Assembly: GCA_040753835.1 (NCBI GenBank) | Contig: JBFMDM010000002.1 | Coordinates: 1-57,724, forward strand | Length of the DNA stretch: 57,724 nt | Reading direction: 5' to 3' | Source: Planctomycetota bacterium | GTDB lineage: Bacteria > Planctomycetota > MHYJ01 > JACQXL01 | In this document: positions 1,692 through 31,140 of the stretch, piece by piece | Numbering within the stretch: position 1 is the stretch's first letter | How the letters are laid out: each line of letters starts with the position of its first letter | The notes under the pieces: model-generated | Told to the model about the DNA's origin: nothing | The model's input: only the letters and a program-made list of their open reading frames with translations | Database searches by the model: none | Translations under genes and position numbers: made by a program

Positions 1692-1946
1692 GATATATTT
1701 ATGAATAAATTTTGTATCCAGCTATAGTACACTACCTTAATCCGGTGACACAAACCAATTTATTAATTCGTATGCGTCCCCAGATTACCTTTTGATTACC
1801 TTTTTACCTTTTTACCTTTACCTTGGACATATTAGTATTCGCATCCTGGATTGTCAAGAGATTACTTTCAGCCGGGTCATAACCGCAAGAGGTGTTGTTG
1901 GCTACTTAATTAGTACGTGTCCCCAGATTAGTGATTAGGATATTTG

Positions 1947-2012
1947 CCCGCCAAAGGCGGGTCCGCCTCCCGCCATTAGGGCGAGGCTCGCCTTCGGGCG
2001 GCTGGCGGAAAA
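1947..2012. repeat. GC-rich nested palindromic element (intergenic copy of the double-hairpin family)
   Basis: CCCGCC-aaa-GGCGGG followed by TCCGCC-tc[ccgccattagggcgaggctcgccttcgggcgg]ct-GGCGGAAAA. The outer arms match the 33-nt element found inside ileS and the M42 peptidase. The inner part matches 5253-5289 and 50933-50957. Confidence 0.7.
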
Positions 2013-2047
2013 TTCCATACAATAAAATATGGGTTTTTACGTTTGTA

Positions 2048-3103
2048 TCAGTTTATCCGGTAGCGGTTTATCCCGGAATCGGCCAGGACCGGCACATTGC
2101 GCAGAACTGTTTTATCAGATAGTATGTTTGTCGTTACATCCTTAACGCCATCCGGCAGGTCTGCATAGCGGGCCGTGATGCCTGCGGCAAGTTTAATGTC
2201 CTCATCGCGGAATCTGCCCCGTAATAGCGCCGTGGGTCCGACATAGTCCGCGGTTTCCATCAGGACGTCTCCTTCGCGGCCATCCGCCGTTTCGTAGCCG
2301 GAGCTCTGGAATGGCGAAGGACGGCACAGGTTGGCAATGGTCTGGTTTTCCTTTTCATTGCGTCCCACTATGAGTTTGAGTTTGTCGTTTATCCTGAAAT
2401 GCCGGCCTACCTGCAATAACAGGGTGTCGTTCAGCCCAAAGTCCGGAGTATATTTCAGGAGGTCCTTCATCCGCACCGCAAATCCGGGGTCGGTGAGTAA
2501 ACATCCGCCGGCCGGACAGGGATAGTCCTTAATCTCAAAGATATTGGCAAGGGACATCTGCTCTTTGCGCGAGCGGCCTGAGATGGCCAGCAATTTGGCC
2601 CGGTCCACCCACTTGTTATTTTCCGGCACGGTCGGCTCCAGCAGCCGGGCCGAGAGCGGCCGCAGGATGAGGCCTTGCAATCCGGTCTCTTTCTCAATAA
2701 GTTTCAGGGCGTTCAGATGCTGGGACATCGGCCGCTGGCTCAGGACCTCGCCGGTAATAATAAAAGACGCGCCGGACCGGTTCATCACCTCGCGGGTTGA
2801 ACGAACCGTATTTATCCGGCAGTCAATGCAGGGGTTAACGTTGCTGCCGTAGCCGTACCGGGGCTTGCGCACCGCTTCCAGCATCAGGTTGGTGTTGTTG
2901 ATGTTTCTTATCGGAATATGAAATTTTTCGGCTACGCTTTTGGCCGTGGAGCCGCAGACGCTGTCTTTGCCGTCGCACCGGCAGAAGACCGTGGTGAAGT
3001 GCAGAGCCTCTATCTCAAGAGGTACCAGGGCGGATTCCTGCACCACCTTGATGGCCAGGGTTGAGTCCAGCCCGCCGGATAACAATGCCAATGCTTTCAC
3101 CAT
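2048..3103 (-). CDS. PP-loop (adenine nucleotide alpha-hydrolase) family ATPase, ThiI/MnmA-like tRNA sulfurtransferase-type
   Basis: 351-aa ORF. N-terminal SGGLDS PP-loop motif (ALALLSGGLDSTLAIKVV), Cys-rich segments (CRCDG, NPCIDCR) and PCPAGGCLLTD. The exact substrate cannot be assigned. Confidence 0.6.
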   Translation of the reverse strand: MVKALALLSGGLDSTLAIKVVQESALVPLEIEALHFTTVFCRCDGKDSVCGSTAKSVAEKFHIPIRNINNTNLMLEAVRKPRYGYGSNVNPCIDCRINTVRSTREVMNRSGASFIITGEVLSQRPMSQHLNALKLIEKETGLQGLILRPLSARLLEPTVPENNKWVDRAKLLAISGRSRKEQMSLANIFEIKDYPCPAGGCLLTDPGFAVRMKDLLKYTPDFGLNDTLLLQVGRHFRINDKLKLIVGRNEKENQTIANLCRPSPFQSSGYETADGREGDVLMETADYVGPTALLRGRFRDEDIKLAAGITARYADLPDGVKDVTTNILSDKTVLRNVPVLADSGINRYRIN

Positions 3104-3248
3104 ACAACAGCAACCACAGATTTCACCGATTTTGCGTGCGCTTCAGCCACAGGCTGAATGCTCCGCCTCACGCTCCGCTTAGTACACAGATTCGTTGACT
3201 TTAGAAAAAAGACATTATAGAATAATACAATAAAAAATACAAAATACA

Positions 3249-3986
3249 ATGTTATCTGCATCCAAATTAAAAGAATCAATAGAGAATATCAAGTCCCGGG
3301 TTAAGTCAGCCGCTCAGCGCGCGGGCCGGAACCCGGATGATATCACTATCGTAGCCGTAACCAAGACGGTCGGGGCGGAAACCCTGAAGGTTCTGTCGGA
3401 ATTGGGCTGGAAGGACATCGGCGAGAACCGGGTGCAGGACACGCTGGATAAGGCCAAGTCATTGGGCACAGAGACCGGGTTTGCCTGGCATATGATAGGC
3501 CACCTGCAGACCAATAAGGCCAAAAAGGCGGTCGGCTTGTTTGACTGGATTCACTCACTGGATTCCCTGCATCTTGCCGAGGAACTCCAGAAAGAGGCGG
3601 TAAAGGCAAACAAGACCCTGCGGGTCCTGATTGAGGTGAACGTGAGCACAGAGGCGAGCAAGGGCGGTATCAGGCCTGAGGAGTTGACGGACTTTTATCG
3701 CAAGGTAAAAGCCGCCCTGCGCCCTGGCGGGACTTCAGAACGGCGGGCTGGGCTGGTCATCAGCGGGTTAATGACTATGGCGCCGCTGAGCGGCGACCCC
3801 GAAGCGTCCCGACCCTGGTTTAGAAAATTAAGGGAATTAAGGGATAAATTAAAGAGCGATTTTATTGACGCAGGCGGCTCTGAGGAACTAAAATATCTCT
3901 CAATGGGGATGAGCCAGGATTTTGAGGTGGCGGCGGAAGAAGGCGCCAATATCCTCAGAATCGGCACGGCCATATTCAAAGAATAA
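3249..3986 (+). CDS. yggS: YggS-family pyridoxal-phosphate-binding protein
   Basis: 245 aa. Family hallmarks: VAVTKTV, IGENRVQD, HMIGHLQTNKAKKAV, LSMGMSQDFEVAAEEGANILRIGTAIF. Confidence 0.8.
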   Translation: MLSASKLKESIENIKSRVKSAAQRAGRNPDDITIVAVTKTVGAETLKVLSELGWKDIGENRVQDTLDKAKSLGTETGFAWHMIGHLQTNKAKKAVGLFDWIHSLDSLHLAEELQKEAVKANKTLRVLIEVNVSTEASKGGIRPEELTDFYRKVKAALRPGGTSERRAGLVISGLMTMAPLSGDPEASRPWFRKLRELRDKLKSDFIDAGGSEELKYLSMGMSQDFEVAAEEGANILRIGTAIFKE

Positions 3987-4058
3987 AGATGACAGAAAAA
4001 AGATGAAAGGATTCTAACTCTCATCTTTTGTCTTTCATCTGTCCTCTTTTACTTTACT

Positions 4059-7040
4059 ATGCCTAAACTGCTTGTAGAAAAAGGGCCGAATAAAGACCTG
4101 GAAATCACGGTCGGCAAGACCGTATTTGCCGGCCGGGATACCTCGGCGCATATTATGCTCACCGAGCCGATGGTCTCGCGCCTGCATTTCAAGATAGAGC
4201 GCCGCAAGGACGGTTATTTCCTGGTTGACCTGGATTCCCTGAACGGCACCTTTGTCAACCGGGCCCGGGTCAGGGAGCGGCTCTTAAAACCCGGGGATAT
4301 GATTCAGGTGGGCGACACCATATTCTCGTTCGTCTCGGACGACCCGGCGACCCAAGCCAAGTCGCTGGTCGGCAAAATCGTGGGCGGGTATTCCATCATA
4401 GAAAGAATCGGCCGGGGCGGGATGGGCACGGTCTACAAGGCGCTTCAGATTTCGCTCAACCGCACGGTGGCGCTTAAAATCCTTTCCGAGGATATGCTCA
4501 AGGACAAGACCTTTATTGATATGTTCCTGCGCGAGGCGCGCTCGGCCGGCCAACTGAACCACAACAACATCGTCCAGGTCTATGACGTCGGCCGGACCCC
4601 GGATGATATCTATTACTTCTCAATGGAGTTTATGCCCGGCGGCAGCATCCAGGAACTGCTGATAAAGAAACAACGGCTGCCGGCATTCCAGGCAACCAGG
4701 ATGATGTTGGATGCGGCAATGGGCCTGTCCTATGCGGAAAAGAAAGGCATTGTCCACCGCGACATCAAGCCGGATAACCTGATGATAAGCGAGGAGGAAA
4801 TCGTAAAAATCGGCGATTTGGGTCTGGCCAAGAGCGTCTCGGCCTCGCAACAGGAACAACAGTCCAATACCCTGATGGGCACGCCGCACTACCTGGCGCC
4901 GGAACAGGCCCTGGGCAAGTCGGTTGACCACCGGTGCGATATCTATTCGCTGGGCGCCAGTTTCTACCGCATCGTTTCGGGCGTAACGCCATACAGCGCC
5001 TCGTCCGTAAAGGATATTATCACCAAGAAATTAAAGGAAGACCCCAGGCCTCTTAAGGAGGTCCTGCCTTCGGTTCCGGATTCGGTGGTCGGGGTTATCA
5101 GCCGGATGATGAGGCGTAATGTTGAGGAACGTTACCAGAACGCCGGCGAACTTGTTAAGGAACTGCAGCAGTTGAAAGATGAATTGGACCCATCCAAGCC
5201 GCTCACCTCGCCAGGCGGAGCCGGCGGGGGCAAACCGACCGCCGCCGCCTTTGGCGAGCCTCGCCCTGCGGGGCGGGAAGGCGGATTTCTGGAGCCCGCA
5301 GGGCCGGTATTACCTGAAGCGGAAAAGGCATTGCGCAAATCGCCTTTTGTCCGGTTCGGCATCCCAGCCATCCTGCTGGTAATGACCATAGGCGTGGTGT
5401 TCCTGCTTTTCAGTTATTATTATTCAGATATAAACAAGACGCTTCCGGATAACGGAAACACCACAAACGGGCCGATTCACCCGCCTCCGGTGACCGGAAG
5501 CGAATACGAGGAGAAACTGGCCCGTGAATACCTGAGCCGGGCGCGCGCCTTTGAGGCCGGGCTTTCTTCGGACAGCGCCAGGGAGGCGGTGCACGACGGC
5601 ATAAAGTTGTTTGAGCGCGTCATCAACGAATGCGCCGGCGCCAAGGACGCCGTAAAAGACGCGCTGGAAGGGATTAACCGCCTTAACAAACTCCTTAAGA
5701 CCCTGGATGAACGGGACAAGCAGCGGCAGGCGGAAAAGGACACCCTGGCCCTTCTTGGCCAACTGGAGGACCGGATTAACGCCAATCTCAAGGCGCTCCT
5801 TGATGCGGCGGATTCTGCGGTCAGGGGAACCCAAATGGCCGAGAATTTCCTGAACACCTCGCTGGCTGAATTGGACGATTTCCTCCGGACCAATCCGCGT
5901 TTCGCCTCGGTTACCGAACGGGCTGAAGGGAAAAAGACATCCCTGACCAAGTGGTTCAAGTCCTGCCAGGCCGCGGGCGAGAAATATCGGACGCTTACCG
6001 AGCAGGCGGAAATCGCCGTCAAGAACGAAAGATTCGCCCAGGCGCTTAAATCCGTCAACGACTTCATTAACAACCCGGCTTACCAGAACACCATCTATTA
6101 TAATATTGCCAGGAATTACCACGCCCTGGTGGAATCGCGAGCCGATAAATCGTTCTCAGACCTGATGCTTCGGGTGGAAGACCTCAAGGATAAGGGCCAG
6201 TTAACCGAGGCCCAGAAGTTGCTGGCCGGAACGCAGGGTTTGTACGGCATAGAAAAAATAGAGGCCCGGATAAAGGAATATCTGGACTGGTTCAAGGGCC
6301 AGGGGGACAAGATTTACGAACAACTGCTGCGGAAAGAAGCCGCGGATTTTCCTCAATACCTGATGTCGCTTTCCTGGTTCCTGCAAAGCGGCCGGTTTGA
6401 CGACTGGGCCGCAAAGGAAGGCCAGATGAAAACCGCCTTCCAAACCAGGGAATACAAGGAAAAGGCCGGGCAGTATCTTTCCCTGATAAAGATGGAAAAG
6501 GGCATTATTGACCGCTTTATTGACCGGTTCAACACGCGGCGGATTGACCGGCCCGTGCTCCAGGGTCGGGAAATCGCATCTATAGACACCGGAAACGGGC
6601 TAATTTATTTTGTCTCCAAGGAAACCCCGCCCCTGAGATTCCAAGAAATATCCATCCGGGACTGGGAACTCTGCCTGACCGGCGGCTGGGATTTTGACGC
6701 CCGGGATTGTTTTGATTTCGCCATGCTCTGCATCTGCCGGGGCGGCAATATCCCCAAAGCCGAGGAGTTCTTCAGCAAATCCCTGACCAAGAAACCCAAC
6801 CGGGAACTCCAGGAACTGCTCAAGACATACCGGCCCAAGGAGAAACTTGAGGAGTTGAAGAAGAACCGCGAGGATGAAGCCGGGATGTTCAGCCAGATAG
6901 CCGATAAATTATACAACGAAAAACAGCCCGGGGCGCTGGACGCCTTCCAACTCCTGCGCTACCGATACGTCAACACCCTGGTCTATACCAACAACAAGAC
7001 GTCCATAGACACCAAGATTAAATTATTGGGAGGAAAATAA
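4059..7040 (+). CDS. FHA-domain Ser/Thr protein kinase with one TM helix and a large extracytoplasmic helical domain
   Basis: 993 aa. FHA-like N-terminus (GRDTSAHIMLTEPMVSRLHFKIERRKDGYFLVDLDSLNGTFVN). Hanks kinase motifs: GRGGMGTVYKA, VALKIL, HRDIKPDNLMI, DLGLA, GTPHYLAPE. TM segment FGIPAILLVMTIGVVFLLFSYYY, then about 540 aa of helical or coiled-coil-like sequence. Confidence 0.85.
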   Translation: MPKLLVEKGPNKDLEITVGKTVFAGRDTSAHIMLTEPMVSRLHFKIERRKDGYFLVDLDSLNGTFVNRARVRERLLKPGDMIQVGDTIFSFVSDDPATQAKSLVGKIVGGYSIIERIGRGGMGTVYKALQISLNRTVALKILSEDMLKDKTFIDMFLREARSAGQLNHNNIVQVYDVGRTPDDIYYFSMEFMPGGSIQELLIKKQRLPAFQATRMMLDAAMGLSYAEKKGIVHRDIKPDNLMISEEEIVKIGDLGLAKSVSASQQEQQSNTLMGTPHYLAPEQALGKSVDHRCDIYSLGASFYRIVSGVTPYSASSVKDIITKKLKEDPRPLKEVLPSVPDSVVGVISRMMRRNVEERYQNAGELVKELQQLKDELDPSKPLTSPGGAGGGKPTAAAFGEPRPAGREGGFLEPAGPVLPEAEKALRKSPFVRFGIPAILLVMTIGVVFLLFSYYYSDINKTLPDNGNTTNGPIHPPPVTGSEYEEKLAREYLSRARAFEAGLSSDSAREAVHDGIKLFERVINECAGAKDAVKDALEGINRLNKLLKTLDERDKQRQAEKDTLALLGQLEDRINANLKALLDAADSAVRGTQMAENFLNTSLAELDDFLRTNPRFASVTERAEGKKTSLTKWFKSCQAAGEKYRTLTEQAEIAVKNERFAQALKSVNDFINNPAYQNTIYYNIARNYHALVESRADKSFSDLMLRVEDLKDKGQLTEAQKLLAGTQGLYGIEKIEARIKEYLDWFKGQGDKIYEQLLRKEAADFPQYLMSLSWFLQSGRFDDWAAKEGQMKTAFQTREYKEKAGQYLSLIKMEKGIIDRFIDRFNTRRIDRPVLQGREIASIDTGNGLIYFVSKETPPLRFQEISIRDWELCLTGGWDFDARDCFDFAMLCICRGGNIPKAEEFFSKSLTKKPNRELQELLKTYRPKEKLEELKKNREDEAGMFSQIADKLYNEKQPGALDAFQLLRYRYVNTLVYTNNKTSIDTKIKLLGGK

Positions 7041-7049
7041 ACAAATCTG

Positions 7050-7880
7050 ATGACAGAGAATAACATCAAAGAGCAGGTCAACTCAGCCGCCGGATTCATC
7101 CGCTCCAAAATACAGGACTTTACGCCCCGAATCGGCATCATTCTGGGCACGGGTCTGGGCAACTTCGCCGATGAGATTACCGACAAAATCATTGTGCCCT
7201 ACCAGGAGATTCCCGGATTCCCGGTTTCGACCGTAATGACCCACAAGGGCGAACTGGTCTTCGGCTCGCTTGGCGGCAGACCGGTTATGGCAATGGCCGG
7301 CCGGTTCCACTATTACGAGGGCTACAATTTACATCAGACCACCTTTCCGGTGCGGGTGATGAAGGCGCTGGGCGTGGAAATCCTGATTGTCTCGGCGGCC
7401 GTGGGAAGCGTCAATGCCGACTGCCCCTGCGGAATGGTGGTCCTGGTCAAGGACCACATAAATCTCCTGGGCGCCAACCCGCTTATCGGCCCGAATGACG
7501 ATTCGCTCGGGCCCAGGTTTCCGGATATGTATAACGCCTACGACAAGGTTCTCCTGGAGATTGCCTCTTCTGTGGCCGAGGAGAATAACATCAAAACCTA
7601 CCGGGCGGTCTATGCCGCGATGACCGGGCCGTCTCTGGAGACGCCGGCCGAATATCGGATGATTCGCATACTCGGCGCCGATGTGGTCGGGATGTCAACC
7701 GTTCCCGAGGTGATTGTGGCCGCGCATTCGGGCCTGCGCACCCTGGCATTGGCGGTCGTCACCGACCTGGCTACGCCCGAGGCCATCAAGCCCGTGGACA
7801 TAGACGAAATAATCCACATTGCAAACGGCGCCGAGCCCTCCTTGAGCGCCATTATCAGGGGCGTGGTCAGGCAACTTTAG
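7050..7880 (+). CDS. punA: purine nucleoside phosphorylase (trimeric PNP/PunA type)
   Basis: 276 aa. Motifs: GIILGTGLG, MAGRFHYYEGY, GPRFPDM, VGMSTVPEVIVA. Confidence 0.8.
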   Translation: MTENNIKEQVNSAAGFIRSKIQDFTPRIGIILGTGLGNFADEITDKIIVPYQEIPGFPVSTVMTHKGELVFGSLGGRPVMAMAGRFHYYEGYNLHQTTFPVRVMKALGVEILIVSAAVGSVNADCPCGMVVLVKDHINLLGANPLIGPNDDSLGPRFPDMYNAYDKVLLEIASSVAEENNIKTYRAVYAAMTGPSLETPAEYRMIRILGADVVGMSTVPEVIVAAHSGLRTLALAVVTDLATPEAIKPVDIDEIIHIANGAEPSLSAIIRGVVRQL

Positions 7881-8009
7881 AACGCAAATCTGTATTTATC
7901 TGCGGAATCTGTGTGAACTTGTAGTGAACGTAGCGAATCTATCTGTGGCTATAATTCTTGACCCTTCTACCGGCGTTTGCTATAGATTATTGCCTTAAAG
8001 GAGAATTGT

Positions 8010-10907
8010 ATGCCAAATGAAAAAACCCGTCTGACCGAGTCATCCGGACAGGCCGACTACCAGAAGACGTTGAACCTGCCTGAGACGGATTTCTCAATGA
8101 AGGCGGACCTGACCAAGAAGGAGCCGATAATCCGCGGTCAGTGGGAGAAACTTGACCTCTACCACGAAATCCTGAAGAAGAATCATAGCAAGCCCAAATA
8201 TATTTTACACGACGGGCCACCTTACGCCAACGGCAACGTCCATATCGGCACGGCCCTGAACAAAATCCTCAAGGACATCGTGGTCAAGTTCAAGACAATG
8301 CAGGGTTTTTACTCGCCTTATATCCCGGGCTGGGACTGCCACGGACTGCCCATTGAACATAAGGTCACCAACGAACTCGGGCCCAAGGCCAAAACCGCTT
8401 CCAAGACCGAAATCAGGCAGGCCTGCGAGAAATACGCCCGTAACTATATTGATATCCAGCGCAAACAGTTCCAAGCCCTGGGCGTATTCGGCGACTGGTA
8501 TAATCCGTACCTGACCCTGAATCCCTCTTACGAGGCCGGCATCATTGAGGTCTTCCGTGACCTGGTTAAGAATGGTTATATCTACCGCAAACTCCGGCCC
8601 ATCCACTGGTGTATGCACTGCGAGACCGTGTTGGCCGAGGCCGAGCTGGAATACTCGGACGAGACCGGCCCGTCTATCTATGTCAAATTCCCGCTCACCG
8701 ACGCGCAACAAGAAGAGCTGGCTAAACGAGTTAAAACTCCGCATTCCACACTCCGCACTCCGCACTCGTTTTTTATCTGGACCACCACGCCCTGGACGCT
8801 TCCGGCCAATGTGGCCGTGGCCCTGAACCCGGCATTTGAATACGCTCTGGTCCAGACCGACACAGATATCCTGATTATGGCCTCAGGCCTGGTGGAAAAA
8901 GTCATGGCGCTAATCGGAATAACCGATTACAAGATTCTGGCCAAGGTCAAGGGCTCTGCCCTGGCAGGCCTGCATTATAATCATCCCTTTGTTTCCGCCG
9001 AAGGCGGATCCGCCTCTGGCGGAAAACCACGCATCTGCCAGGTCATCCTGGCCGATTATGTCAGTTTAGAGGACGGCACAGGCATCGTGCACATCGCGCC
9101 CGGGCACGGCGTTGAGGACTACGAAAGCGGACTGAAATACAACCTACCGGTCATCAGCCCGGTGGATAAATCCGGCCGGTTCACGCCGGAGGCCGGCGTA
9201 TTCCCGGGCGAGCGCGTATTCGACGCGGACCCGAAAATCTGCCAGATGCTCGCCGAGCAGAAACTGCTCCTTAAGAAGGTGGACGTGGTCCACTCGTATC
9301 CGCACTGCTGGCGCTGTAAAAAGCCGCTCATTTTCCGGGCCACCGAGCAGTGGTTCATCTCCGTGGACAACCACTCGGCCCGGCAGAAAGCAATAGAGGA
9401 AGTAAAGAAAACGCGCTGGGTGCCCGAATGGGGCAAGAGCCGGACCGCGGCAATGCTTGAATCCCGGCCCGACTGGTGCGTCTCGCGCCAGCGTAACTGG
9501 GGCGTGCCCATCCCCATCTTCTACTGCGCCAAGTGCAACCAGTCGCTCCTGGACGTCAAGGCCATAGACCACGTGCGCGAGATATTTTCTAAAGAAGGCG
9601 CCAATGCCTGGTTCATCAGGCCCACCGCCGAACTGGTTCCCGCGGGCACCAAATGCAAATGCGGCTCAACCGAATTTTCTAAGGAGAACGACATATTTGA
9701 CGTCTGGTTTGAATCCGGCTCGTCATTCCGCTCGGTTGTCATAGAAAACAAGGACCTGCACTTCCCGGCGGACTTATATCTGGAGGGCTCGGACCAGCCG
9801 GCGAGGTGGTTCCAGTTGTCGCTCCTGCCCTCGGTAATGACGCGCGGGGTCGCGCCATTTAAGAACGTCCTGATTCACGGATTCGTCAAGCGTCCCGAAG
9901 GCGAGAAACTCTCCAAGTCCAAGGGCGCGATGACCTCGGACGAGATGGTCAGCAAGGTCGGCGCTGACATCATCCGGCTCTGGATTTCATCCATCAACTT
10001 CACCGAGGACATCCCGATTTCCCTGGAAATCCTGCAGGAAAAGGCCGACCCGTATCGCAAGATTCGCAATACCTTCAGGTATATGCTGGGTAATCTTTAT
10101 GATTTCAACCCGGCCGAGGACGCGGTCAAACACGACAAGATGCCGGAGATAGACCGCTGGGCCCTGAATAAAGTCCAACGTTTGGTGCGCGACCTGACCC
10201 GGTATTACGAGGATTTTGAGTTCTACAAGGTATTCCGCGACTTCTACGAATTCTGCGTGGTGGAAATGAGTTCGTTCTATTTTGACATCCTCAAGGACCG
10301 GCTTTATACGTTCGGCCGGAACTCGCCCGAACGCCGGTCCGCCCAGACCGCCTTGAATGAAATACTCCATACGATGGTAAAACTTATTGCGCCCGTTCTC
10401 TCCTATACAGCCGAGGAAATCTGGGATAATATCATTTTCGCCAATTCCAAATTCGGCAATCGGCAACCCGCGTTCGTGCGCAGCGTCCACCTGCTGGACT
10501 GGCCCAAGGTGGATGAGGCCTGGATTGACAACCGCCTTGAGGAGAACTGGAAGAAGATATTCCTGATTCGCTCCGAGGTAACCAGAGAGATAGAAAACCT
10601 GCGCAAGGAAGGCCAGATCGGCTCGTCTATTGAAGCCGACGCCGTACTCTATACCGAAGGGGCAGACCTGCTGGAATTCCTGAAGATATACGAAAAAGAC
10701 CTTGCCACCATCCTAAAGGTCTCGTCTGTCAGGGTGGTCAGGAAACCGGCCCGGAAACCCGCGGAGCAAATGCAAATGGGCGTGGAGATAACCAAATCGC
10801 CGCACCAGAAATGCGCCCGGTGCTGGAATTATATGGTGGATGTTGGCAGGGACAAGAACCATCCGACCCTCTGCGGACGTTGCGTTACCATCGTCAGCGC
10901 GATGTAA
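8010..10907 (+). CDS. ileS: isoleucine--tRNA ligase
   Basis: 965 aa. HIGH-type motif (PPYANGNVHIGTALN), KMSKS-type motif (KLSKSKG), and a C-terminal Cys4 zinc module (CARCWNY...CGRC). Carries two in-frame repeat insertions (see findings). Confidence 0.95.
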   Translation: MPNEKTRLTESSGQADYQKTLNLPETDFSMKADLTKKEPIIRGQWEKLDLYHEILKKNHSKPKYILHDGPPYANGNVHIGTALNKILKDIVVKFKTMQGFYSPYIPGWDCHGLPIEHKVTNELGPKAKTASKTEIRQACEKYARNYIDIQRKQFQALGVFGDWYNPYLTLNPSYEAGIIEVFRDLVKNGYIYRKLRPIHWCMHCETVLAEAELEYSDETGPSIYVKFPLTDAQQEELAKRVKTPHSTLRTPHSFFIWTTTPWTLPANVAVALNPAFEYALVQTDTDILIMASGLVEKVMALIGITDYKILAKVKGSALAGLHYNHPFVSAEGGSASGGKPRICQVILADYVSLEDGTGIVHIAPGHGVEDYESGLKYNLPVISPVDKSGRFTPEAGVFPGERVFDADPKICQMLAEQKLLLKKVDVVHSYPHCWRCKKPLIFRATEQWFISVDNHSARQKAIEEVKKTRWVPEWGKSRTAAMLESRPDWCVSRQRNWGVPIPIFYCAKCNQSLLDVKAIDHVREIFSKEGANAWFIRPTAELVPAGTKCKCGSTEFSKENDIFDVWFESGSSFRSVVIENKDLHFPADLYLEGSDQPARWFQLSLLPSVMTRGVAPFKNVLIHGFVKRPEGEKLSKSKGAMTSDEMVSKVGADIIRLWISSINFTEDIPISLEILQEKADPYRKIRNTFRYMLGNLYDFNPAEDAVKHDKMPEIDRWALNKVQRLVRDLTRYYEDFEFYKVFRDFYEFCVVEMSSFYFDILKDRLYTFGRNSPERRSAQTALNEILHTMVKLIAPVLSYTAEEIWDNIIFANSKFGNRQPAFVRSVHLLDWPKVDEAWIDNRLEENWKKIFLIRSEVTREIENLRKEGQIGSSIEADAVLYTEGADLLEFLKIYEKDLATILKVSSVRVVRKPARKPAEQMQMGVEITKSPHQKCARCWNYMVDVGRDKNHPTLCGRCVTIVSAM

Positions 10908-16240: not shown

Positions 16241-17629
16241 ATGCCGTTTAATAACGAATTAAAACAGCGTGTCCTGGAAAAACTCAAGCCCTCTATGGAT
16301 AATATCTGGCTGAAGGAGCTTAATTTCATAGAGGAGCCGGAAGGCACGCTGAAGGTGCCGCTACCCAACGTTTTCTACGTGGATTATTACAGGAAGAATT
16401 TCCTTTCCCTTATAGAGCAGACCGTATCGGAGGTGGCCGGCCGCGGTTACAATATAACCCTTATTGCCCCGCCCGAGCAGGGACGGCTGTTCACGGATAT
16501 TCTTGTGACCAAAGATATGGGGCGCCGCCCGGCTAAGGATGGCAGAGAGCCGCCCGTTACTCCATCCGCCAATAAACCGGCCGGCAAGAACGATTTTACC
16601 CTGAATGAAAATTACACCTTTGACAGATTTGTGGTGGGCCTGTGCAACCGGATGGCGCATGCGGCGGCCCAAGCCGTGGCAACCAATCCCGGCAAGGCCT
16701 ATAATCCTTTGTTCATCCACGGCGGCGTGGGACTGGGCAAGACGCATCTCCTGCAGGCCGTCTGCCATCAGGTCCTCGCCCAGCGTCCTGACTGTTCCAT
16801 TTACTACCGTTCCGGCGAGGGATTTGTCAACGACTATATCATGGCCGTAAAGAACAACGCCTTTGAGAAATTCCGCCAGTCCTGCCGCTCCAAGGATATG
16901 ATGATAATAGACGACATCCATTTTCTCGGCGCCGGGGAAAAAGCGGCCAGCCAGGAGGAATTCTTTCATACCTTTAATGCCCTGCATAACAACCAGAAGC
17001 AGATTATTCTTTCCAGCGATTCGCCGCCCAAGGAGATACCGCTTCTGCAGGACCGGCTGGTTTCCCGTTTTAACTGGGGAATGGTGGCCCGCTTGGAGAC
17101 GCCCGACTTTGAGACGAGGGCGGCAATCCTAAGGAAGAAAGCCGAGGGTTATAAAATAGAACTGCCTGAGGACGTGGTGAATTTCATCGCCGAGGTTATT
17201 AACACGAATATCCGCGACCTGGAGGGCGCCCTAATCCGGGTCATCGGCCTGTCCCGCAGTTCCGGCCAAAACCCCACGGTTGCCCTGGCAACCGAGGCAT
17301 TAAAGGATGTTGTGGGCGCATCTTCGCGCCGAATAAAGGTGGCAAACATTATTGATATTATTGCCGGCTATTTTAACCTCTCGGCCGCGGACCTGCAGTC
17401 CAAGACGCGTCTGAAGTCCGTATCCCTGGCCCGGCAAATCGGGTTTTACCTGACCCGCCAGTTAAAACCGGACATGTCCCTTGAAGAAATCGGCGCGGCT
17501 TTCGGGGGACGGGAGCATTCCACGGTCCTGCTGGCCATAGAAAAAATCCGCAAACGCCTCCAAAAGGACGCCCAGTTCAGGGAAACCGTTAATCTCCTTA
17601 CCTCTGAAGTCAGGAAGAAATCGGTTTAG
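16241..17629 (+). CDS. dnaA: chromosomal replication initiator protein DnaA
   Basis: 462 aa. AAA+ Walker A (GGVGLGKTHLLQAV), DDIHFL box, and a C-terminal DNA-binding signature (SLEEIGAAFGGREHSTVLLAIEKI). Confidence 0.95.
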   Translation: MPFNNELKQRVLEKLKPSMDNIWLKELNFIEEPEGTLKVPLPNVFYVDYYRKNFLSLIEQTVSEVAGRGYNITLIAPPEQGRLFTDILVTKDMGRRPAKDGREPPVTPSANKPAGKNDFTLNENYTFDRFVVGLCNRMAHAAAQAVATNPGKAYNPLFIHGGVGLGKTHLLQAVCHQVLAQRPDCSIYYRSGEGFVNDYIMAVKNNAFEKFRQSCRSKDMMIIDDIHFLGAGEKAASQEEFFHTFNALHNNQKQIILSSDSPPKEIPLLQDRLVSRFNWGMVARLETPDFETRAAILRKKAEGYKIELPEDVVNFIAEVINTNIRDLEGALIRVIGLSRSSGQNPTVALATEALKDVVGASSRRIKVANIIDIIAGYFNLSAADLQSKTRLKSVSLARQIGFYLTRQLKPDMSLEEIGAAFGGREHSTVLLAIEKIRKRLQKDAQFRETVNLLTSEVRKKSV

Positions 17630-17922
17630 TTTTTGTTGCTTTTGCGTATAAAAGACGTTATTATAAAAGGCGGCGCGGCATAATAACCGGTCTGTTTTGC
17701 CGGTATTTATAAAACGCTATTAGAAAGATGAAATTTATCAACCGGTTATAACCCGTGTTTTACCGGTTATCTACAATCTGCTTGGGCGTGTTTATTGCCC
17801 ATCTCTTTGGTAATCTATGGGTTATATTTAGGTTTATTGGATATCTACAAACAGGCGTGTACATAATAATAAGAAGAAGAAAAATATATTAGTTTACTAT
17901 AAAATATTAGGAGGAGTGTATA
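17630..17922. other. putative oriC segment (dnaA-dnaN spacer with DnaA-box-like sites and AT-rich unwinding region)
   Basis: TTATCTACA at 17767-17775 (8/9 to TTATCCACA), ATATCTACA at 17841-17849 and TTATCAACC at 17735-17743. CCGGT(T)AT repeats three times. An AT-rich run at 17865-17905 lies just before dnaN. Confidence 0.5.
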
Positions 17923-19035
17923 ATGAAGGTTATATGCAATAAAGACCAGTTATTAAAGGCGTTTCAAGTTGTCAGCCCGGTTGTTCCTGCCAAGAGTTCA
18001 ATGCCGGTGTTGCAGAATGTCAAATTAAGCGCAGATGACAAAGCGCTTTTTATTTCCGCCACTGATTTGGAGGTGGGTATCCAATATCCGCTCTCGGCTG
18101 AAATAAAGGAAAAGGGAACGATAATTATCCCCAGCGGCCGGCTGGGCGGCATTTTGCGCGAGACAACAGACGAGCAGATAACCATAGAGGGCGTTGGCGG
18201 AGCGGCCAATATCAAGACCAAAACCAGTAAGTATAAAATAATGTGTATGGATTCAGCGGAATACCCGGATTTTCCGGCATTTAATGAAAAGAAAGCCATA
18301 AGCATAAGCGCTTCGGGATTGAAAGAAATGGTTTGCAAGACCACCTTCGCGGTCTCGCAGGAAATAACCCGTTATGCCCTGACCGGACTTTTGATGGAAA
18401 TACGCAAGAAAGAACTCCGGATGGTGGCAAGCGACGGCAAGCGGCTGGCCTATATTAAACGGCGTTCCGAACAAGAGGTTGCATCAGATATCAAGGTGAT
18501 AGTTTCTCCCAAGGCGTTGAACCTTCTGGAGCGGATAATAGAAGACGAGGAGCAGGTAATAAAAATAGAAACGGACGAGACGCAATTCAAGGCAATGATT
18601 CCCCAGAAAGACCAGAAAGGCATTATCCTGTTCTCCCGCCTGATAGAAGGGGCCTTCCCGGATTACGAAAGCGTTATTCCGCCGGACAGCGACAAGAAGA
18701 TAGAAATGCCAGCCGGGGAATTGCTGTCGGCAATGAAACGGGTTTCACTGGTAACCACGGACAAATTCAAGGCCACCCAGATATCCATGGAAAAAGACAA
18801 AATGACGCTCCTGACCAGGACCCAGGATGTTGGCGAGGCAACTGTAGAACTGCCCATAAAATATTCCAGCGAGGCGTTCAGGATAACCTTTAACCCGGAA
18901 TTCTTTATAGATATGCTCCGGATTGTCGGAGACGAGAACATAACCCTGGGGCTAAAGGACAAGACGTCCCCGGCCGTAATAAAGCAGGGCAAGGATTATG
19001 TTTATATCGTAATGCCCCTGACAATCGAGATGTAA
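17923..19035 (+). CDS. dnaN: DNA polymerase III beta sliding clamp
   Basis: 370 aa, typical length, positioned after dnaA. N-terminus MKVICNKDQLLKAFQVVSPVVP and C-terminal ...YIVMPL are sliding-clamp-like. Confidence 0.9.
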   Translation: MKVICNKDQLLKAFQVVSPVVPAKSSMPVLQNVKLSADDKALFISATDLEVGIQYPLSAEIKEKGTIIIPSGRLGGILRETTDEQITIEGVGGAANIKTKTSKYKIMCMDSAEYPDFPAFNEKKAISISASGLKEMVCKTTFAVSQEITRYALTGLLMEIRKKELRMVASDGKRLAYIKRRSEQEVASDIKVIVSPKALNLLERIIEDEEQVIKIETDETQFKAMIPQKDQKGIILFSRLIEGAFPDYESVIPPDSDKKIEMPAGELLSAMKRVSLVTTDKFKATQISMEKDKMTLLTRTQDVGEATVELPIKYSSEAFRITFNPEFFIDMLRIVGDENITLGLKDKTSPAVIKQGKDYVYIVMPLTIEM

Positions 19036-19045
19036 TGCTTGTTAT

Positions 19046-19972
19046 ATGGCAGACGAAATCTCAGCCCGTACGAGCAAGGCGGCTATCTGGAGTTTAATCT
19101 GCGGAATATTGTCGTTCCTGTGCCTGCCCGCGCTTCCGGCCATTATTCTTGGCATTGTTGCCCTGGTGGCCATCAGCAACAGCAACGGGAAACTAAAAGG
19201 GACCGGCTTGGCTATTGCCGGGATGATTGCGGCGGTTGTTATCCCGGTAGTTATGATACCCGTTTTGGCTATTATCGCGGCTATTGTTATTCCCAATGTT
19301 GTTCGCCCGCAGGCTGAACCGGCGCCGTTCTTTAACGACAGTTGTTGGACCGAGCCCCGGGATAGCGGCCCATCAAGCGAACTCCGCAGAGACCGCGTCA
19401 GCGAACAAATACCTGCCAACGAAGCCGCGGCTATCGCGTCCTTGCGGGTGCTGACCGTTTCCGAGTCAGTTTGGTATCAGCAGGACCCGGACGGCAACGG
19501 AATAAAGGACTACTGGACTTATGATGTCTCGTGCCTTCACCGGATGTTTCGGGCCGACAAAACAACCAAGGTCGCGTTTATTTCCCTGGACCTGGCCCGG
19601 GCGGACAGCAGTCCTGCCGAAACAGGCGATTTCGGAGAGAGGCCGCTTATAGAGGATTGGCTTACGGTGGCATTGGCGCCCAAAAACGGTTATTATTTCC
19701 AGGCAATGGAACTGGATGAAAACGGCGAGCCGTATAATCAGGTTGAGGCGGGCGAAACCGGCATAAAAGCGACCAACAAGATTAAATTCGGATTTGTGGC
19801 CTATCCGGCCGAGTATGGCAAGGCCGGCCGCAGGACTTTTATCGTAAACGAGCAGGGCACGGTATACGCCATAGACGTTAATCCGGATATTTACGGAATT
19901 GCCCTGCAGTGGCCGGCGGGCGACGACCCCAACGACCCGTATCAAAAGAGCAAGTGGTCGGCGGCGGAATAA
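19046..19972 (+). CDS. membrane protein with DUF4190-like N-terminus and DUF2950-like C-terminal domain
   Basis: 308 aa. N-terminal helices (AAIWSLICGILSFLCLPALPAIILGIVALVAISNSNGKLKGTGLAIAGMIAA). The C-terminus FGFVAYPAEYGKAGRRTFIVNEQGTVYAIDV recalls the AYPA.YG..G..TF.V...G.VY motif of DUF2950 (from memory). Confidence 0.6.
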   Translation: MADEISARTSKAAIWSLICGILSFLCLPALPAIILGIVALVAISNSNGKLKGTGLAIAGMIAAVVIPVVMIPVLAIIAAIVIPNVVRPQAEPAPFFNDSCWTEPRDSGPSSELRRDRVSEQIPANEAAAIASLRVLTVSESVWYQQDPDGNGIKDYWTYDVSCLHRMFRADKTTKVAFISLDLARADSSPAETGDFGERPLIEDWLTVALAPKNGYYFQAMELDENGEPYNQVEAGETGIKATNKIKFGFVAYPAEYGKAGRRTFIVNEQGTVYAIDVNPDIYGIALQWPAGDDPNDPYQKSKWSAAE

Positions 19973-20003
19973 CAAGTCCGCAGGCAGTCCCGCTAAGAGG
20001 GAA

Positions 20004-22969
<2,966 letters not shown>

Positions 22970-23549: not shown

Positions 23550-24659
23550 GTGAATAAAGAAACCGTAGAGATGCTCAAACGTCTAACCGACGCCAACGGC
23601 GTGCCTGGTTACGAATCAGAAGTGGCGGAGGTAATCCGGAGGGAGTTGACCGGCCTTGTTTCATTCTCCTACGACAAACTGGGTAGCATCGTCTGCGAGA
23701 AAAAGGGCTCAAGCCCTTCGCCCAAAATAATGCTCCCCGGCCACATGGACGAGGTCGGCTTTATGGTCACCCGCATTACCGAAGACGGATTCATCAAGTT
23801 CACGATGTTAGGCGGCTGGTTACCGCAGTATATGCTGGCGCAGAGAGTGGTCGTCAAAACCAGCAAGGGCGACATCCCGGGCATCATCGGCGCCAAGCCC
23901 ATCCACATTATGACCGAAGAGGAGCGCAAGAAGGTGCCGGACAAGAAAGACCTATTTATTGACATCGGCGCCAGGGACGAAAAGGATGCGGCCAGAATCG
24001 GCGTCCGGCCCGGCGACCCGATTATCCCGGTCGCGCCTTTTACCCAAATGGCCAATCCTGATTATCTCCTGGCCAAGGCCTGGGACGACCGGCTTGGCTG
24101 CGCCCTGTTCATTGACGTAATCAAGAACCTCTCCGCCAAAGGCGGATCAGCCTCCGGTGGAAAGGGCAGAAAACATCCCAATACGGTCTACGGCGTGGGC
24201 ACGGTCCAGGAAGAGGTGGGCACGCGCGGCGCGCACACCTCGGTGCGCAAAATTAATCCGGACGTGGCCCTGGTCTGCGAGGTCGGCATTGCCCAGGACG
24301 TGCCGGGCGGCGAGAAGAATGCCGGCGTATTGGGCAAGGGGCCGCAGATTACCATCTACGACCGCGGGATGATACCCAATCTGGCCCTGCGCGACTTCAT
24401 TATGGACACGGCCGAAAAACACAAGATACCATACCAGATACAATCAATGGAAGGCGGGATGACAGACGGCGGCCCGATTCACCTCAGCGCCGAGGGCGTG
24501 CCCTGTATTTATTTAGGCGTCCCGACCCGGTATATCCACTGCCATTCGGGCATCATCCACAAGCAGGACTATGACAATACCGTGCGCTTGATTACCGAGG
24601 TGGTCTTAAAACTGGACGCCAAGACCGTGAATGGCTTTACCCCGCGCATAAAAGATTAG
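23550..24659 (+). CDS. M42-family aminopeptidase (FrvX/YpdE-like)
   Basis: 369 aa, GTG start. Motifs: LPGHMDEVGFMV, AWDDRLGC, TVQEEVGTRGA, HCHSG. Contains an in-frame copy of the GC-rich double hairpin. Confidence 0.8.
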   Translation: MNKETVEMLKRLTDANGVPGYESEVAEVIRRELTGLVSFSYDKLGSIVCEKKGSSPSPKIMLPGHMDEVGFMVTRITEDGFIKFTMLGGWLPQYMLAQRVVVKTSKGDIPGIIGAKPIHIMTEEERKKVPDKKDLFIDIGARDEKDAARIGVRPGDPIIPVAPFTQMANPDYLLAKAWDDRLGCALFIDVIKNLSAKGGSASGGKGRKHPNTVYGVGTVQEEVGTRGAHTSVRKINPDVALVCEVGIAQDVPGGEKNAGVLGKGPQITIYDRGMIPNLALRDFIMDTAEKHKIPYQIQSMEGGMTDGGPIHLSAEGVPCIYLGVPTRYIHCHSGIIHKQDYDNTVRLITEVVLKLDAKTVNGFTPRIKD

Positions 24660-24820: not shown

Positions 24821-25660
24821 ATGAAAAATGAGTTAACGCCAGTGACCAAAATAGCCGTCTTCCGCGGCGCGGAAATCCGTAAGACCACCCACAAAAACGA
24901 ATGGTGGTTTGTCGTGGAGGATGTGGTCTTTGCCCTGACGGACTCAGTCAACCCTAAGGACTATATCAATAAGATGCGTGTAAGAGACGAAGAATTAAAC
25001 AAAGGGTATGGATAAATTGTCCATACCCTTCCGGTTAAGACAATGGGCGGAGTTCAGCGGATGAACTGCGCCAATACCGAAGGGATATTCCGTATCATCC
25101 AGTCCATCCCCTCGCCCAAGGCCGAGCCCTTCAAGCGCTGGCTGGCCCGGGTCGGTTACGAACGGGTCAAAGAAATAGAAGACCCGGAACTGGCCACCAA
25201 ACGGACGAGGGCATTATATAAGGCCAAGGGCTATTCGGACGACTGGATAGAAAAACGAATGCGCGGGATTGCCATCAGGGAAGAACTGACCGACCAGTGG
25301 AAAAAGCACGGGGTTGAGGAAGACCGGGAATACGAGATTCTGACCGCGGAAATCTCCAAGGACACTTTCGGTCTTACCCCCAGCCAGTACAAGAAACTAA
25401 AGAACCTCAAACGTGAGAATCTGCGCGACCATATGAACGACCTGGAACTCATCTTCTCTATGTTAGATGAGGCCTCCACCAGCCAAATCACCAAGGTGGA
25501 GCATCCCAAGGACTTTAGCGAAAATAAGGCCGTCTCCCGCCGGGGCGGCAATGTGGCCGGTATCGCCCGTAAGAAACTGGAGCAGGAAACCGGTCGCAAG
25601 GTGGTCAACAAGCAAAACTATTTAGCCCAGCCGCAGAATAAATACTTAAAGAATAAATAA
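24821..25660 (+). pseudogene. BRO-N / prophage-antirepressor-like gene interrupted by one in-frame TAA
   Basis: Track ORFs 24821-25015 and 25043-25660 are in the same frame (25043-24821 = 222). Read through the TAA at 25013-25015, the product is continuous: ...EELNKGYG*IVHTLPVKTMGGVQRMNCANTEGIFRIIQSIPSPKAEPFKRWLARVGYERV.... The N-terminal FRGAEIR...EWWFVVEDV is BRO-N-like. Confidence 0.7.
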
Positions 25661-25711
25661 AGACAGACCAGCAGGCGGGTCGGGCTACCCTGATTCATAA
25701 TCTTCAATCCC

Positions 25712-25757
25712 GCATCTCATATCTCGTATCTGTATCTCGAATCCCATATCTCGCATT
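25712..25757. repeat. heptanucleotide tandem array (NNATCTC x about 6.5)
   Basis: gcatctc atatctc gtatct gtatctc gaatccc atatctc gcat. Intergenic. Confidence 0.8.
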
Positions 25758-26043
25758 TTTCTGGCAAAGGCAAAGGGGATTTGGTAGGATACAGATAAAT
25801 AATTCGGCCCTGTGCCAAAGGCGCTGGTCGCGCGCACCGCCAGGCGCACAGCGGGTACATGCTGTCCCCCGAATTACGAGTGATATATATATTTATTAGC
25901 GGATGAATTGAATATGGCGTCCCCCGAACTTTCCAAGGGTATCCTGGACAAAACCAAATCCGTAACCACAGATAAACGCAGATAAACACTGATTTCCCAA
26001 GCACTTATAACCCTTAACTGTGCACTTTTGACTTAAATTTTGG

Positions 26044-26101
26044 TCCCGCAGTTCTGCGGGATCTAAAAGCCAGTAACGACCAAAGGTCTAACTGGCTCTA
26101 A
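26044..26101. repeat. TAAC-hairpin element, copy A
   Basis: TCCCGCAG-ttc-CTGCGGGA followed by AAGCCAG-TAAC-GACC-aaa-GGTC-TAA-CTGGCTCT. Confidence 0.8.
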
Positions 26102-26103
26102 GA

Positions 26104-26418: not shown

Positions 26419-26475
26419 GCTATTATACAAGCAAATAGTCCCGACACAAAATTTTGCAGATTTTTAGTATTTTTC

Positions 26476-26504
26476 TTGACAATATCATCACATTTATATA
26501 GCAT
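26476..26504 (+). promoter_or_regulatory. candidate promoter for the 26549 gene
   Basis: TTGACA (26476-26481), 17-nt spacer, TAGCAT (26499-26504). Preceded by a T-rich UP-like tract and located 45 nt upstream of the ATG in a very AT-rich stretch. Confidence 0.4.
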
Positions 26505-26548
26505 AATATTAACAGATATAACTAAATAGATATATTAAGGAGTAAAAG

Positions 26549-27067: not shown

Positions 27068-27077
27068 TTCTCTGGTT

Positions 27078-29009: not shown

Positions 29010-29020
29010 AAGGATAATCT

Positions 29021-29741: not shown

Positions 29742-29745
29742 ACCT

Positions 29746-31128: not shown

Positions 31129-31140
31129 GGATTAATTTAT

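Follow-up and report, generated by a model that had tools for sequence, protein, structure and literature searches.

How does one short, nearly self-complementary piece of DNA come to lie, in the same reading frame, inside genes for unrelated proteins? The question is raised by a contig of a Planctomycetota bacterium (JBFMDM010000002.1, assembly GCA_040753835.1), of which positions 1 to 57,724 were analysed (the whole stretch, referred to here as the window). Its isoleucyl-tRNA synthetase (IleRS) gene contains a GC-rich double hairpin of 30 nt, which recurs with a few changes in the gene of a peptidase. A reading made from the letters alone (the sequence-only reading) had proposed a selfish palindromic element tolerated as a surface loop. 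Our results support this proposal, since nearly all orthologues compared lack the Gly/Ser loop and many further copies exist. We give a probability of about 0.7 to the reading that the segment is a copy of a very small, nonautonomous selfish palindrome, similar to repetitive extragenic palindromic (REP) sequences and their hairpin-forming doublets (REPINs) and functionally similar to the Rickettsia palindromic elements (RPEs). The features on which the argument is built are the following (E values of the hairpins are from the covariance model described below).

8994-9023, no strand assigned: double hairpin of 30 nt, TCCGCC-GAA-GGCGGA followed by TCCGCC-TCT-GGCGGA (E = 5e-16)
8010-10907, plus strand: host gene 1, full-length IleRS of 965 amino acids (best phmmer match in the PDB 8c9e, E = 4e-260)
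24132-24161, no strand assigned: second double hairpin of 30 nt, TCCGCC-AAA-GGCGGA followed by TCAGCC-TCC-GGTGGA (E = 2e-8)
23550-24659, plus strand: host gene 2, M42 (TET/FrvX-type) metallo-aminopeptidase, 369 amino acids against 355 in relatives

Insertions in two unrelated enzymes

The IleRS double hairpin equals its own reverse complement except in the loops. Positions 8994-9026 (TCCGCCGAAGGCGGATCCGCCTCTGGCGGAAAA) lie in frame in the open reading frame (ORF) 8010-10907 on the plus strand and translate to S-A-E-G-G-S-A-S-G-G-K, flanked by ...YNHPFV and PRICQVILADYV, exactly as the sequence-only reading had described. That reading had taken the element to be 33 nt long, which we correct to 30 nt: the comparison of filled and empty sites indicates an element of two 15-nt units, with the trailing AAA and the T-rich and A-rich flanks belonging to the target. 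The insert SAEGGSASGG is placed between GTT (V328) and AAA (K339). Relatives lacking it read ATT|AAG, ATT|AAA GAA and, in a 75%-identical outgroup, GTT|AAA GAG, and the filled alleles read GTT|30 nt|AAR CCA, with no duplication.

The segment is present in 2 of the 60 closest IleRS proteins, the window protein and P0003 (82% identical); the other 58, including P0002 (84% identical), P0004, and P0005, are gapped. The structures of the P. megaterium and S. aureus enzymes leave a gap of exactly 11 residues opposite the insert in the PDB alignment. The insert lies within the connective peptide 1 (CP1) editing-domain region, where the editing-domain structure 1wk8 aligns to residues 215 to 432. The same insertion at the same IleRS site is found in three independent assemblies (the window and the loci L001 and L002), which show natural sequence divergence, and L001 and L002 derive from different samples. 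The AlphaFold2 model of the enzyme has a mean predicted local distance difference test (pLDDT) score of 90.1 and puts the insert at the tip of a beta-hairpin (residues 322-329/340-347), with a local pLDDT of about 64 compared to 85 to 94 nearby.

At the empty IleRS site of close relatives (L003 3252-3263, L005 10994-11002, L251, L252, and L253), the residues are unusually variable in number and kind, being S-T, Q, K, or K-E. An earlier insertion that was lost imprecisely could have left such traces, or the site could be a mere variable turn.

The peptidase copy (24132-24164, TCCGCCAAAGGCGGATCAGCCTCCGGTGGAAAG) lies in ORF 23550-24659 on the plus strand in the same phase as the IleRS copy and reads SAKGGSASGGK. 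The sequence-only reading was right about this frame and peptide, and its identity of 28/32 needs to be changed to 28 of 33 positions, with 26 of 30 in the core. The insert SAKGGSASGG is placed between CTC (L195) and AAG (K206). None of the 49 closest M42 relatives carries it, including an 88%-identical protein of GCA_016235865.1, nor do the PDB homologues; among the proteins compared, the insertion is unique to the window lineage. The filled site AAC CTC|30 nt|AAG GGC compares to empty sites GCA CTC|AAG GGT and GCC CTT|AAA GGT, a difference of exactly 30 nt with zero bases duplicated or lost. Two substitutions in this copy, TCC to TCA and GGC to GGT, break the stem and are both synonymous, which looks like hairpin decay with the peptide unchanged. 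In the AlphaFold2 model (mean pLDDT 92.5), the sole segment below 50 is residues 198 to 204, inside the insert (196 to 205), which lies between helix 182-195, following the invariant D179/R181, and strand 212-218, preceding the invariant E221-E222.

Both inserts are clean, lineage-specific insertions, as had been expected from alignment with orthologues, and both fall in low-confidence loops of otherwise confident models. Within the limits of predicted models, in which the loop location is read from pLDDT and the neighbouring secondary structure, this supports the surface-loop idea.

Copies in other genomes

We searched one genome per GTDB species (596 Gb) with the exact pattern CCGCC-N3-GGCGG-R-TCCGCC-N3-GGCGG, which specifies about 21.5 bases. 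The doublet is found at a minimum of 119 loci in these species representatives, where fewer than one is expected by chance, as estimated from the information content of the pattern. It reaches at least 10 phylum-level groups and is often inside housekeeping genes. Among the matches listed, 80 loci have record titles, of which 33 belong to the candidate phyla radiation (CPR)/Patescibacteria, 9 to Omnitrophota, and 12 to the Planctomycetes-Verrucomicrobia-Chlamydiae (PVC) group, here Kiritimatiellae, Verrucomicrobiota, Planctomycetes, and Lentisphaerae. Eight are metagenome-assembled genomes (MAGs) labelled Gammaproteobacteria, and the remaining titled loci are assigned to Chloroflexota, Ignavibacteria, Bacteroidota, Firmicutes, a MAG labelled Deltaproteobacteria, and Firestonebacteria or are unclassified. 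The GC content of the loci listed ranges from 33 to 70%.

A Pfam search of 10 sampled host ORFs identifies clear housekeeping domains in 9: DnaG primase, the beta subunit of phenylalanyl-tRNA synthetase (PheRS-beta, with two copies in one gene), UvrB, a class I aminoacyl-tRNA synthetase (aaRS), Mfd, a class II aaRS, ArsA, CysRS, and RecG are found, and one ORF has no Pfam match. In IMG/VR (2.9 million contigs), there are four matches only, and the doublet is absent from PLSDB, INPHARED, and 5,426 Escherichia coli genomes, together 37.6 Gb of plasmid, phage, and E. coli sequence.

Some loci share more than the doublet. In Ignavibacteria/Bacteroidota, four homologous large proteins (L045, L059, L064, and L103) carry it at the same position of a conserved C-terminal domain (...GSYxVQF|SAKGGSAxGG|...ASGVY), which is either an inherited or a repeatedly hit site. 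In Kiritimatiellae/Verrucomicrobia (L013 at 4588 and 6409, L008, L043, and L075), the doublet lies within a longer repeat with conserved flanks, ...GGATTG[doublet]AAATTCCTATG, and the 3' flank of an intergenic copy in the window (2010-2020) is similar (AAAATTCCATAC). These flanks suggest a longer, PVC-specific version that may have a basal stem.

Within the window, matches to the 33-mer with up to three mismatches have an expectation of 0 in shuffled sequence. The hairpin CCGCC-N3-GGCGG, with one mismatch allowed, occurs 14 times compared to 4.2 expected, a number that 0 of 100 shuffles reach. A covariance model built solely from copies in other phyla and then run on the window recovers the IleRS copy (8990-9027, E = 5e-16), the peptidase copy (24128-24165, E = 2e-8), and an intergenic copy (1943-1988, E = 4e-6), as well as single units at 30996, 39200, and 42872 (E of about 3e-3 to 5e-3).

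Anatomy, junction, and reading frame

The unit is a 15-nt hairpin, (T/C)CCGCC-NNA-GGCGG(A/G), with a 6-bp stem and a 3-nt loop. Among the matches listed, to which the counts in this and the next paragraph refer, at least 90% have A as the last of the three loop bases, and 107 of 123 copies are inverted doublets with no spacer, forming a near-palindrome with GGATCC at its center. There are 125 doublets compared to 27 isolated units and no triplets. The closing pair covaries between T-A and C-G inside each unit, not across the 30-mer (UA 40 to 44, CG 10 to 13), with 23 double changes against 6.9 in shuffled data (0 of 500 shuffles as high). On the 5' side, T stands at position -2 in 82% of copies and positions -3 to -1 are T-rich; the 3' side is mirrored by A's. 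All five empty sites in the two genes read YT|AA, with no target-site duplication.

The pattern is its own reverse complement and therefore offers the same three frames in either orientation, S-A-x-G-G-S-A-x-G-G, R-x-R-R-I-R-x-x-R, and P-P-x-A-D-P-P-x-A. Open frames of at least 300 amino acids hold the SAxGG phase 41 times and the others 4 times and once (P = 5e-15), whereas frames below 100 amino acids, presumed to be noncoding, give 6/10/6. Altogether, open frames of at least 150 amino acids account for 69 of the 108 exact copies, and 57 of these 69 share one phase. These counts are most simply explained if insertion takes place without regard to phase and genes retain only those copies whose phase encodes small flexible residues. 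The intact frames and the phase bias indicate that the inserts are probably translated. The number of further copies and their frame distribution, for which the sequence-only reading had asked, come out in its favour.

Mobility: the evidence and a possible mechanism

After removal of the insert columns, a neighbor-joining analysis of 16 IleRS sequences did not once pair the two filled alleles as sisters in 100 bootstraps and placed P0003 inside a clade of empty ones (77% bootstrap). The 30-nt cores of the two filled alleles differ by one loop base while the genes are 82% identical (P of about 0.02), and both continue with K-P (AAR CCA), where the empty alleles have K-E, K, Q, or S-T. The tree and the K-P pattern together could be explained by one origin followed by recombination, by repeated hits, or by multiple losses.

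Under the preferred reading of a mobile selfish palindrome, new copies would be placed between the T's and A's of an existing YT|AA site without duplication or loss of target. The likeliest route would be a trans-acting enzyme that recognizes the hairpin or a cruciform, as for REP/REPIN and for IS200/IS605 single-strand transposition. Copies in the SAxGG phase in a surface loop would be nearly harmless and could persist because the 30-mer is 10 codons long, is self-complementary, and encodes small flexible residues only; this persistence would extend to essential genes. Copies in the other two phases would be removed by selection, as the 41:4:1 bias suggests. The IleRS insert would lengthen the tip of the editing-domain beta-hairpin, and the peptidase insert would lengthen a helix-to-strand loop. 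After insertion a copy may decay, for which the stem-breaking synonymous changes in the peptidase would be an example.

Several points weigh against this reading. Mobility is deduced from the distribution, the clean filled and empty sites, and the gene-tree conflict, and neither a transposition event nor a filled/empty polymorphism within a population was observed. The shared K-P favours a single origin with recombination over two independent hits. Pfam finds no transposase among 30 window ORFs. A jackhmmer search with the ISHp608 TnpA (sequence verified against 2a6m) through 254 sources (1.82 Mb) finds two IS200-type TnpA genes. Neither is flanked by a unit, and the end hairpins of the gene that lies next to a copy (L095 3485-3904) are of another kind. 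When 1,959 ORFs of 119 loci were clustered all against all, no family occurred in more than four loci. The four IMG/VR matches and the lack of matches in the plasmid and phage collections leave no horizontal vehicle found. Copy density in this lineage is low: the 57.7-kb window has three doublet-type copies, and 126 kb from relatives yield one doublet plus one single unit. That at least 10 phylum-level groups have identical stems fits poorly with the known lineage-specific, vertically transmitted systems of REPs and their REP-associated tyrosine transposase (RAYT), and the apparent taxonomic breadth could be inflated by MAG misbinning. Finally, nothing can be concluded from the constancy of the five inner stem pairs, since the exact search pattern fixed them when the set was collected.

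Comparison with known elements

The RPEs, reportedly described by Ogata et al. in 2000, are about 100 to 150 bp long (30 to 50 amino acids), are not GC-rich, and are confined to Rickettsia and relatives. The likeness, drawn already by the sequence-only reading, lies in a palindromic repeat that sits in frame in unrelated, often essential genes and in noncoding DNA, adds surface segments when translated, is patchy among close relatives, and has no transposase of its own. The analogy holds for the in-frame, probably translated palindrome and for its place in a loop and fails for length, tag, and taxon: the element described here is 30 nt (10 amino acids), about four times shorter, GC-rich, and untagged, and its stems are the same across at least 10 phylum-level groups, whereas RPEs are classed as repeats with a terminal CGTC tag (PMC3733652).

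The REP/REPIN systems are closer. REPs are short GC-rich stem-loops (20 to 40 bp, with stems of 5 to 13 bp and short loops), mostly inverted dimers with covarying stems, and nonautonomous; they carry a GTAG (or CGTC) tetranucleotide cleaved by the RAYT, flank the RAYT gene, are overwhelmingly extragenic, and are species or genus specific (PMC3733652; PMC3116915; PMC3337134). Intragenic REPs in replication and repair genes were described by Di Nocera et al. in 2013 (PMC3733652). The stem-loop size, the inverted (head-to-head) dimers, the covarying stems, and the intragenic copies are shared with our element, which differs in having no tag and no spacer between the units, in being mostly intragenic and cross-phylum, and in that no RAYT link was found. 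Among the 123 copies in the matches listed, 8 have CGTC/GACG and about 2 to 5 have GTAG/CTAC no further than 8 nt from an end, both at chance level, and T-rich and A-rich flanks are found instead. Membership in the GTAG/CGTC REPs was rejected on these grounds. The element resembles a REP/REPIN hairpin doublet more than an RPE of 100 to 150 bp; its unusual traits are the minimal size, the mostly intragenic position, the cross-phylum occurrence, and the lack of an identifiable mobilizing system.

Other comparisons are looser. RAYT and IS200/IS605 single-strand mobilization produces no duplication and uses hairpins (PMC3116915; PMC3337134; PMC3733652). The absence of duplication, the hairpins, and the short target motif alongside make this a likeness, as a mechanistic analogy only, whereas our element is symmetric, the ends of IS200/IS605 are asymmetric, and no Y1 transposase was found with the copies. 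The mobile GC clusters of yeast mitochondria (e.g., GC42) are 30 to 60 bp or longer, have AG target nucleotides or footprints, and are mostly intergenic (PMC4478555). Double-hairpin elements of Allomyces and chytrid mitochondrial DNA are attributed there to Paquin, Laforest, and Lang (2000). Both are, like our element, small GC-rich palindromes in more AT-rich genomes, with stems more conserved than loops, filled and empty sites among relatives, and an unknown transposition mechanism; they are organellar, whereas the copies here are on bacterial chromosomes, mostly in frame in genes, with a YT|AA junction and no duplication. The palindromic amphipathic repeat coding elements (PARCELs) likewise are coding DNA with dyad symmetry, distributed horizontally among distant microbes, but they form tandem domains of 25 residues in surface proteins of unknown function, in contrast to single 10-codon insertions in housekeeping enzymes. 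A search of the open-access full-text literature, DNA and peptide strings included, found no description of the hairpin-doublet family.

Alternative explanations

The copies may have spread without a dedicated transposase, by ectopic gene conversion, microhomology-mediated repair, or replication template switching at hairpin-prone YT|AA sites. We consider this unlikely, though a serious rival. It agrees with the lack of a linked transposase, of a recurrent neighbor gene, and of a target-site duplication, and the elements frequently form mosaics with other GC-rich hairpins, either nested or in clusters. The K-P codons shared by filled IleRS alleles that are not sisters would also fit a transfer by homologous recombination. 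In a search for a recombination tract around the insert, the flanks of the window and of L001 are no more alike than the rest of the gene. The same 30-mer in at least 10 phylum-level groups stays unexplained in this way (as the stem identity across phyla does with an enzyme), the target flanks have no homology to the element that could prime conversion, and the inverted doublet with its T-rich and A-rich junction looks like recognition by a specific enzyme. Less probable again is a nucleic-acid signal that benefits the host, either an mRNA structure that slows ribosomes or stabilizes the transcript or a palindromic site for a dimeric protein, with the peptide being incidental. Such a signal would agree with the covariation of the closing pair within a unit, with a core in which the two filled IleRS alleles differ less than they do in the gene, with the upstream T-tract and downstream A-tract, which prevent intrinsic-terminator action on either strand, and with the role of REPs as RNA elements in some species (PMC3733652). 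It is opposed by the patchy presence among close relatives in essential genes, the unrelated positions across many unrelated proteins, the lack of an Rfam family, and the two substitutions in the peptidase copy, which keep the peptide and lose the pairing; the strong phase bias is the expectation for purifying selection on a translated passenger.

A flexible Gly/Ser loop that enzymes acquired or converged on because it is beneficial has little chance of being correct. The composition is that of a classic flexible linker and the inserts sit in loops, but unrelated genes and phyla agree at synonymous positions as well and use GC-rich codons even where the host has only 33 to 45% GC, the same DNA occurs in noncoding regions and in the other two phases, and nearly all orthologues lack it. 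The identity at the DNA level effectively refutes an origin at the protein level. An artefact, such as an assembly chimera, a library adapter, or contamination with a synthetic linker, is hardly credible either. GGC GGA TCC is a common Gly-Gly-Ser/BamHI linker, and GGSASGG and GGCGGATCCGCC appear in the literature only as engineered linkers and primers. Against this stand the IleRS site filled in the window, L001, and L002 with natural divergence, the variable loops and covarying closing pair, a 41:4:1 phase bias in intact long ORFs that an artefact would not produce, and the lack of any match in the plasmid, phage, and E. coli collections (37.6 Gb), in which contamination from vectors ought to be visible.

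Familiar feature classes were also tried and rejected. Rfam 15 at the gathering threshold finds only a tRNA-Phe in the whole window, and with E values up to 1 nothing in 1800-9200 overlaps the copies. An intrinsic terminator is at odds with T's preceding and A's following the hairpins on both strands, and the terminator scan does not list them. A miniature inverted-repeat transposable element would be expected to leave a target-site duplication, which the comparison of filled sites to five empty alleles in two genes does not show.

A second hairpin family and other features of the window

Besides the two double hairpins, the window contains the following related or possibly related features.

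1947-2009, no strand assigned: intergenic composite of a C-G-type unit CCCGCC-AAA-GGCGGG (1947-1961) and a TCCGCC...GGCGGA stem (1962-2009)
5238-5285, minus strand: nested variant of 48 nt with the architecture of 1962-2009 in reverse orientation, identified by local alignment with 1962-2009
30996-31010, no strand assigned: isolated C-G-type unit CCCGCC-AGA-GGCGGG, intergenic (E of about 4e-3)
39200-39214, no strand assigned: isolated C-G-type unit CCCGCC-TTC-GGCGGG, intergenic, just downstream of rpsJ (S10) (E of about 3e-3)
42872-42886, no strand assigned: isolated C-G-type unit CCCGCC-TTC-GGCGGG, about 40 nt downstream of tRNA-Phe (42927-42999, minus strand) (E of about 3e-3)
22397-22429, plus strand: possible decayed or hybrid relative in a GyrB insertion, TCCTCC..GGCGGA arms around the palindrome TGGCGCC/GGCGCCA, membership not established

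The sequence-only reading had listed a plain intergenic copy at 1947-2012. One unit and a stem are indeed present, within a composite: the loop of the stem at 1962-2009 encloses a nested element of a second family, CCCGCC-ATTA-GGGCGAGGCTCGCC-TTC-GGGCGGC, and the flanks GGATATTT/AAAATTCC add a basal stem (fold of -45.5 kcal/mol; model hit 1943-1988, E = 4e-6). Locus L134 carries a nested core identical to that of 1962-2009. The variant at 5238-5285 lies in frame in the linker of a gene with an FHA domain and a Ser/Thr kinase domain (4059-7040) and reads ...TAAAFGEPRPAGREGG (also given as ...AAFGEPRPAGREGG); it belongs to 22 codons that the kinase has in excess of its orthologues. Directly upstream of the nested element, at 5202-5231, the linker has another window-specific GC-rich insert of 30 nt (10 codons), LTSPGGAGGG.

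The pattern CCCGCC-N(3-6)-GGGCGAGGCTCGCC retrieves at least 120 metagenome loci of this second family. Its members have the form CCCGCCC-loop-GGGCG-AGG-CTCGCC-[hairpin of variable length with complementary arms]-GGCGGC and are flanked by T's. In loci L131 to L250, long ORFs contain it mostly in one orientation and phase, reading AA-x-GEPRP-x-GRE or ...EASLAPEGRE, and lengths change in steps of 3 nt even in seemingly noncoding copies. A conserved T·G pair would make the structure strand specific. In L001, a Rex-like gene (2609-3286, minus strand) has an insertion of 19 amino acids (2780-2880) that L005 lacks and that consists of one TCCGCC-AAA-GGCGGA unit and an unrelated, perfect 18-nt palindrome, CCCCGAAAGCTTTCGGGG (CCCCGAAAG|CTTTCGGGG). 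Small palindromes of several kinds therefore appear to enter genes in frame in this lineage.

Perfect GC-rich 6-bp hairpins with loops of 3 to 5 nt occur 36 times in the window compared to 7.4 expected from local shuffles, an excess of about fivefold. The overrepresentation of the class indicates that the TCCGCC doublet belongs to a larger set of small GC-rich hairpin repeats, which lie inside or beside one another. Many of the 36 lie between genes and may represent terminators or additional families of small repeats. The motif GGTCTAACTGGCT at 31010-31022 and 42908-42920 adjoins two of the isolated CCCGCC..GGCGGG units, and an AT-rich inverted repeat, TTAGAACCTGTTAGACC/GGTCTTACAGGTTCTTAA, lies at 39150-39190, downstream of rpsJ and before the unit at 39200. 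The context of L228 resembles this inverted repeat (GGTCTAAC...GTAACGAC).

GyrB (20282-22969) has two window-specific in-frame insertions, at 22367-22438 (14 amino acids) and 22643-22693 (7 amino acids), both ending in ...PSGGKE. They give no match to covariance model R1 and may be decayed or hybrid relatives of the hairpin family. As family members, the window-specific insertions in GyrB and other genes were rejected: they contain GC-rich palindromes, but only the kinase insert can be tied to a defined family. An odd Pfam match in RNase HII was likewise considered as an insertion and looked like divergence instead.

Other repeats and gene clusters were seen in the window. A 92-nt intergenic repeat with the hairpin CCCGCTATCCAGCGGG occurs three times (54087-54178, 55712-55803, and 57620-57711; 87 to 100% identical), and a 300-nt repeat (54097-54396 and 55722-56021; 96% identical) extends across the 5' ends of two genes and adjoins an ORF with an Ntox33 toxin domain (54212-55267) and a DUF4279 ORF (55283-55723). 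Together, the repeats at 54087-57711 look like a polymorphic-toxin cassette array. Region 25043-32094, which includes the hairpin unit at 30996, encodes a Bro-N fragment, an HTH_17 (excisionase-like) protein, TPR repeats, and several ORFs with no Pfam match and may be an integrated mobile island. The dnaA-dnaN-(DUF4190)-dciA-gyrB cluster at 16241-22969 is syntenic with L125 and L126, and the window probably spans the chromosomal replication origin region.

Biological significance

In-frame selfish palindromes in essential genes have so far counted as an oddity known from Rickettsia and from a small number of intragenic REPs. The form described here is far smaller (10 codons) and is found in many of the least-studied phyla, inside primase, repair helicases, and several aminoacyl-tRNA synthetases. 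A bolder interpretation, which we put forward only tentatively and consider doubtful, is that of an undescribed class of ultra-small mobile DNA: at 30 nt it would be smaller than any characterized transposable unit, would prefer essential genes, and would have the same invariant stems in CPR/Patescibacteria, Omnitrophota, PVC bacteria, and others, its blunt insertion at YT|AA matching no described transposition mechanism (no tag, no terminal inverted repeat or target-site duplication, and no linked transposase). With at least one sister family (CCCGCCC..GGGCGAGGCTCGCC..GGCGGC), it might then be a general, overlooked source of short loop insertions in uncultivated bacteria.

If these findings are borne out, the element would account for a recurrent class of odd low-complexity inserts rich in Gly/Ser/Ala, and also Pro- or Arg-rich ones, in CPR, Omnitrophota, and PVC proteins, which otherwise confound alignment, phylogeny, and structure prediction. 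The copies would provide a natural map of insertion-tolerant loops in essential enzymes, and they would raise the question of what recognizes a 15-nt hairpin and inserts it at YT|AA without duplication in phyla between which few mobile-element vectors are shared. Since groundwater populations that occur together contain both filled and empty alleles, existing reads would allow mobility to be tested directly.

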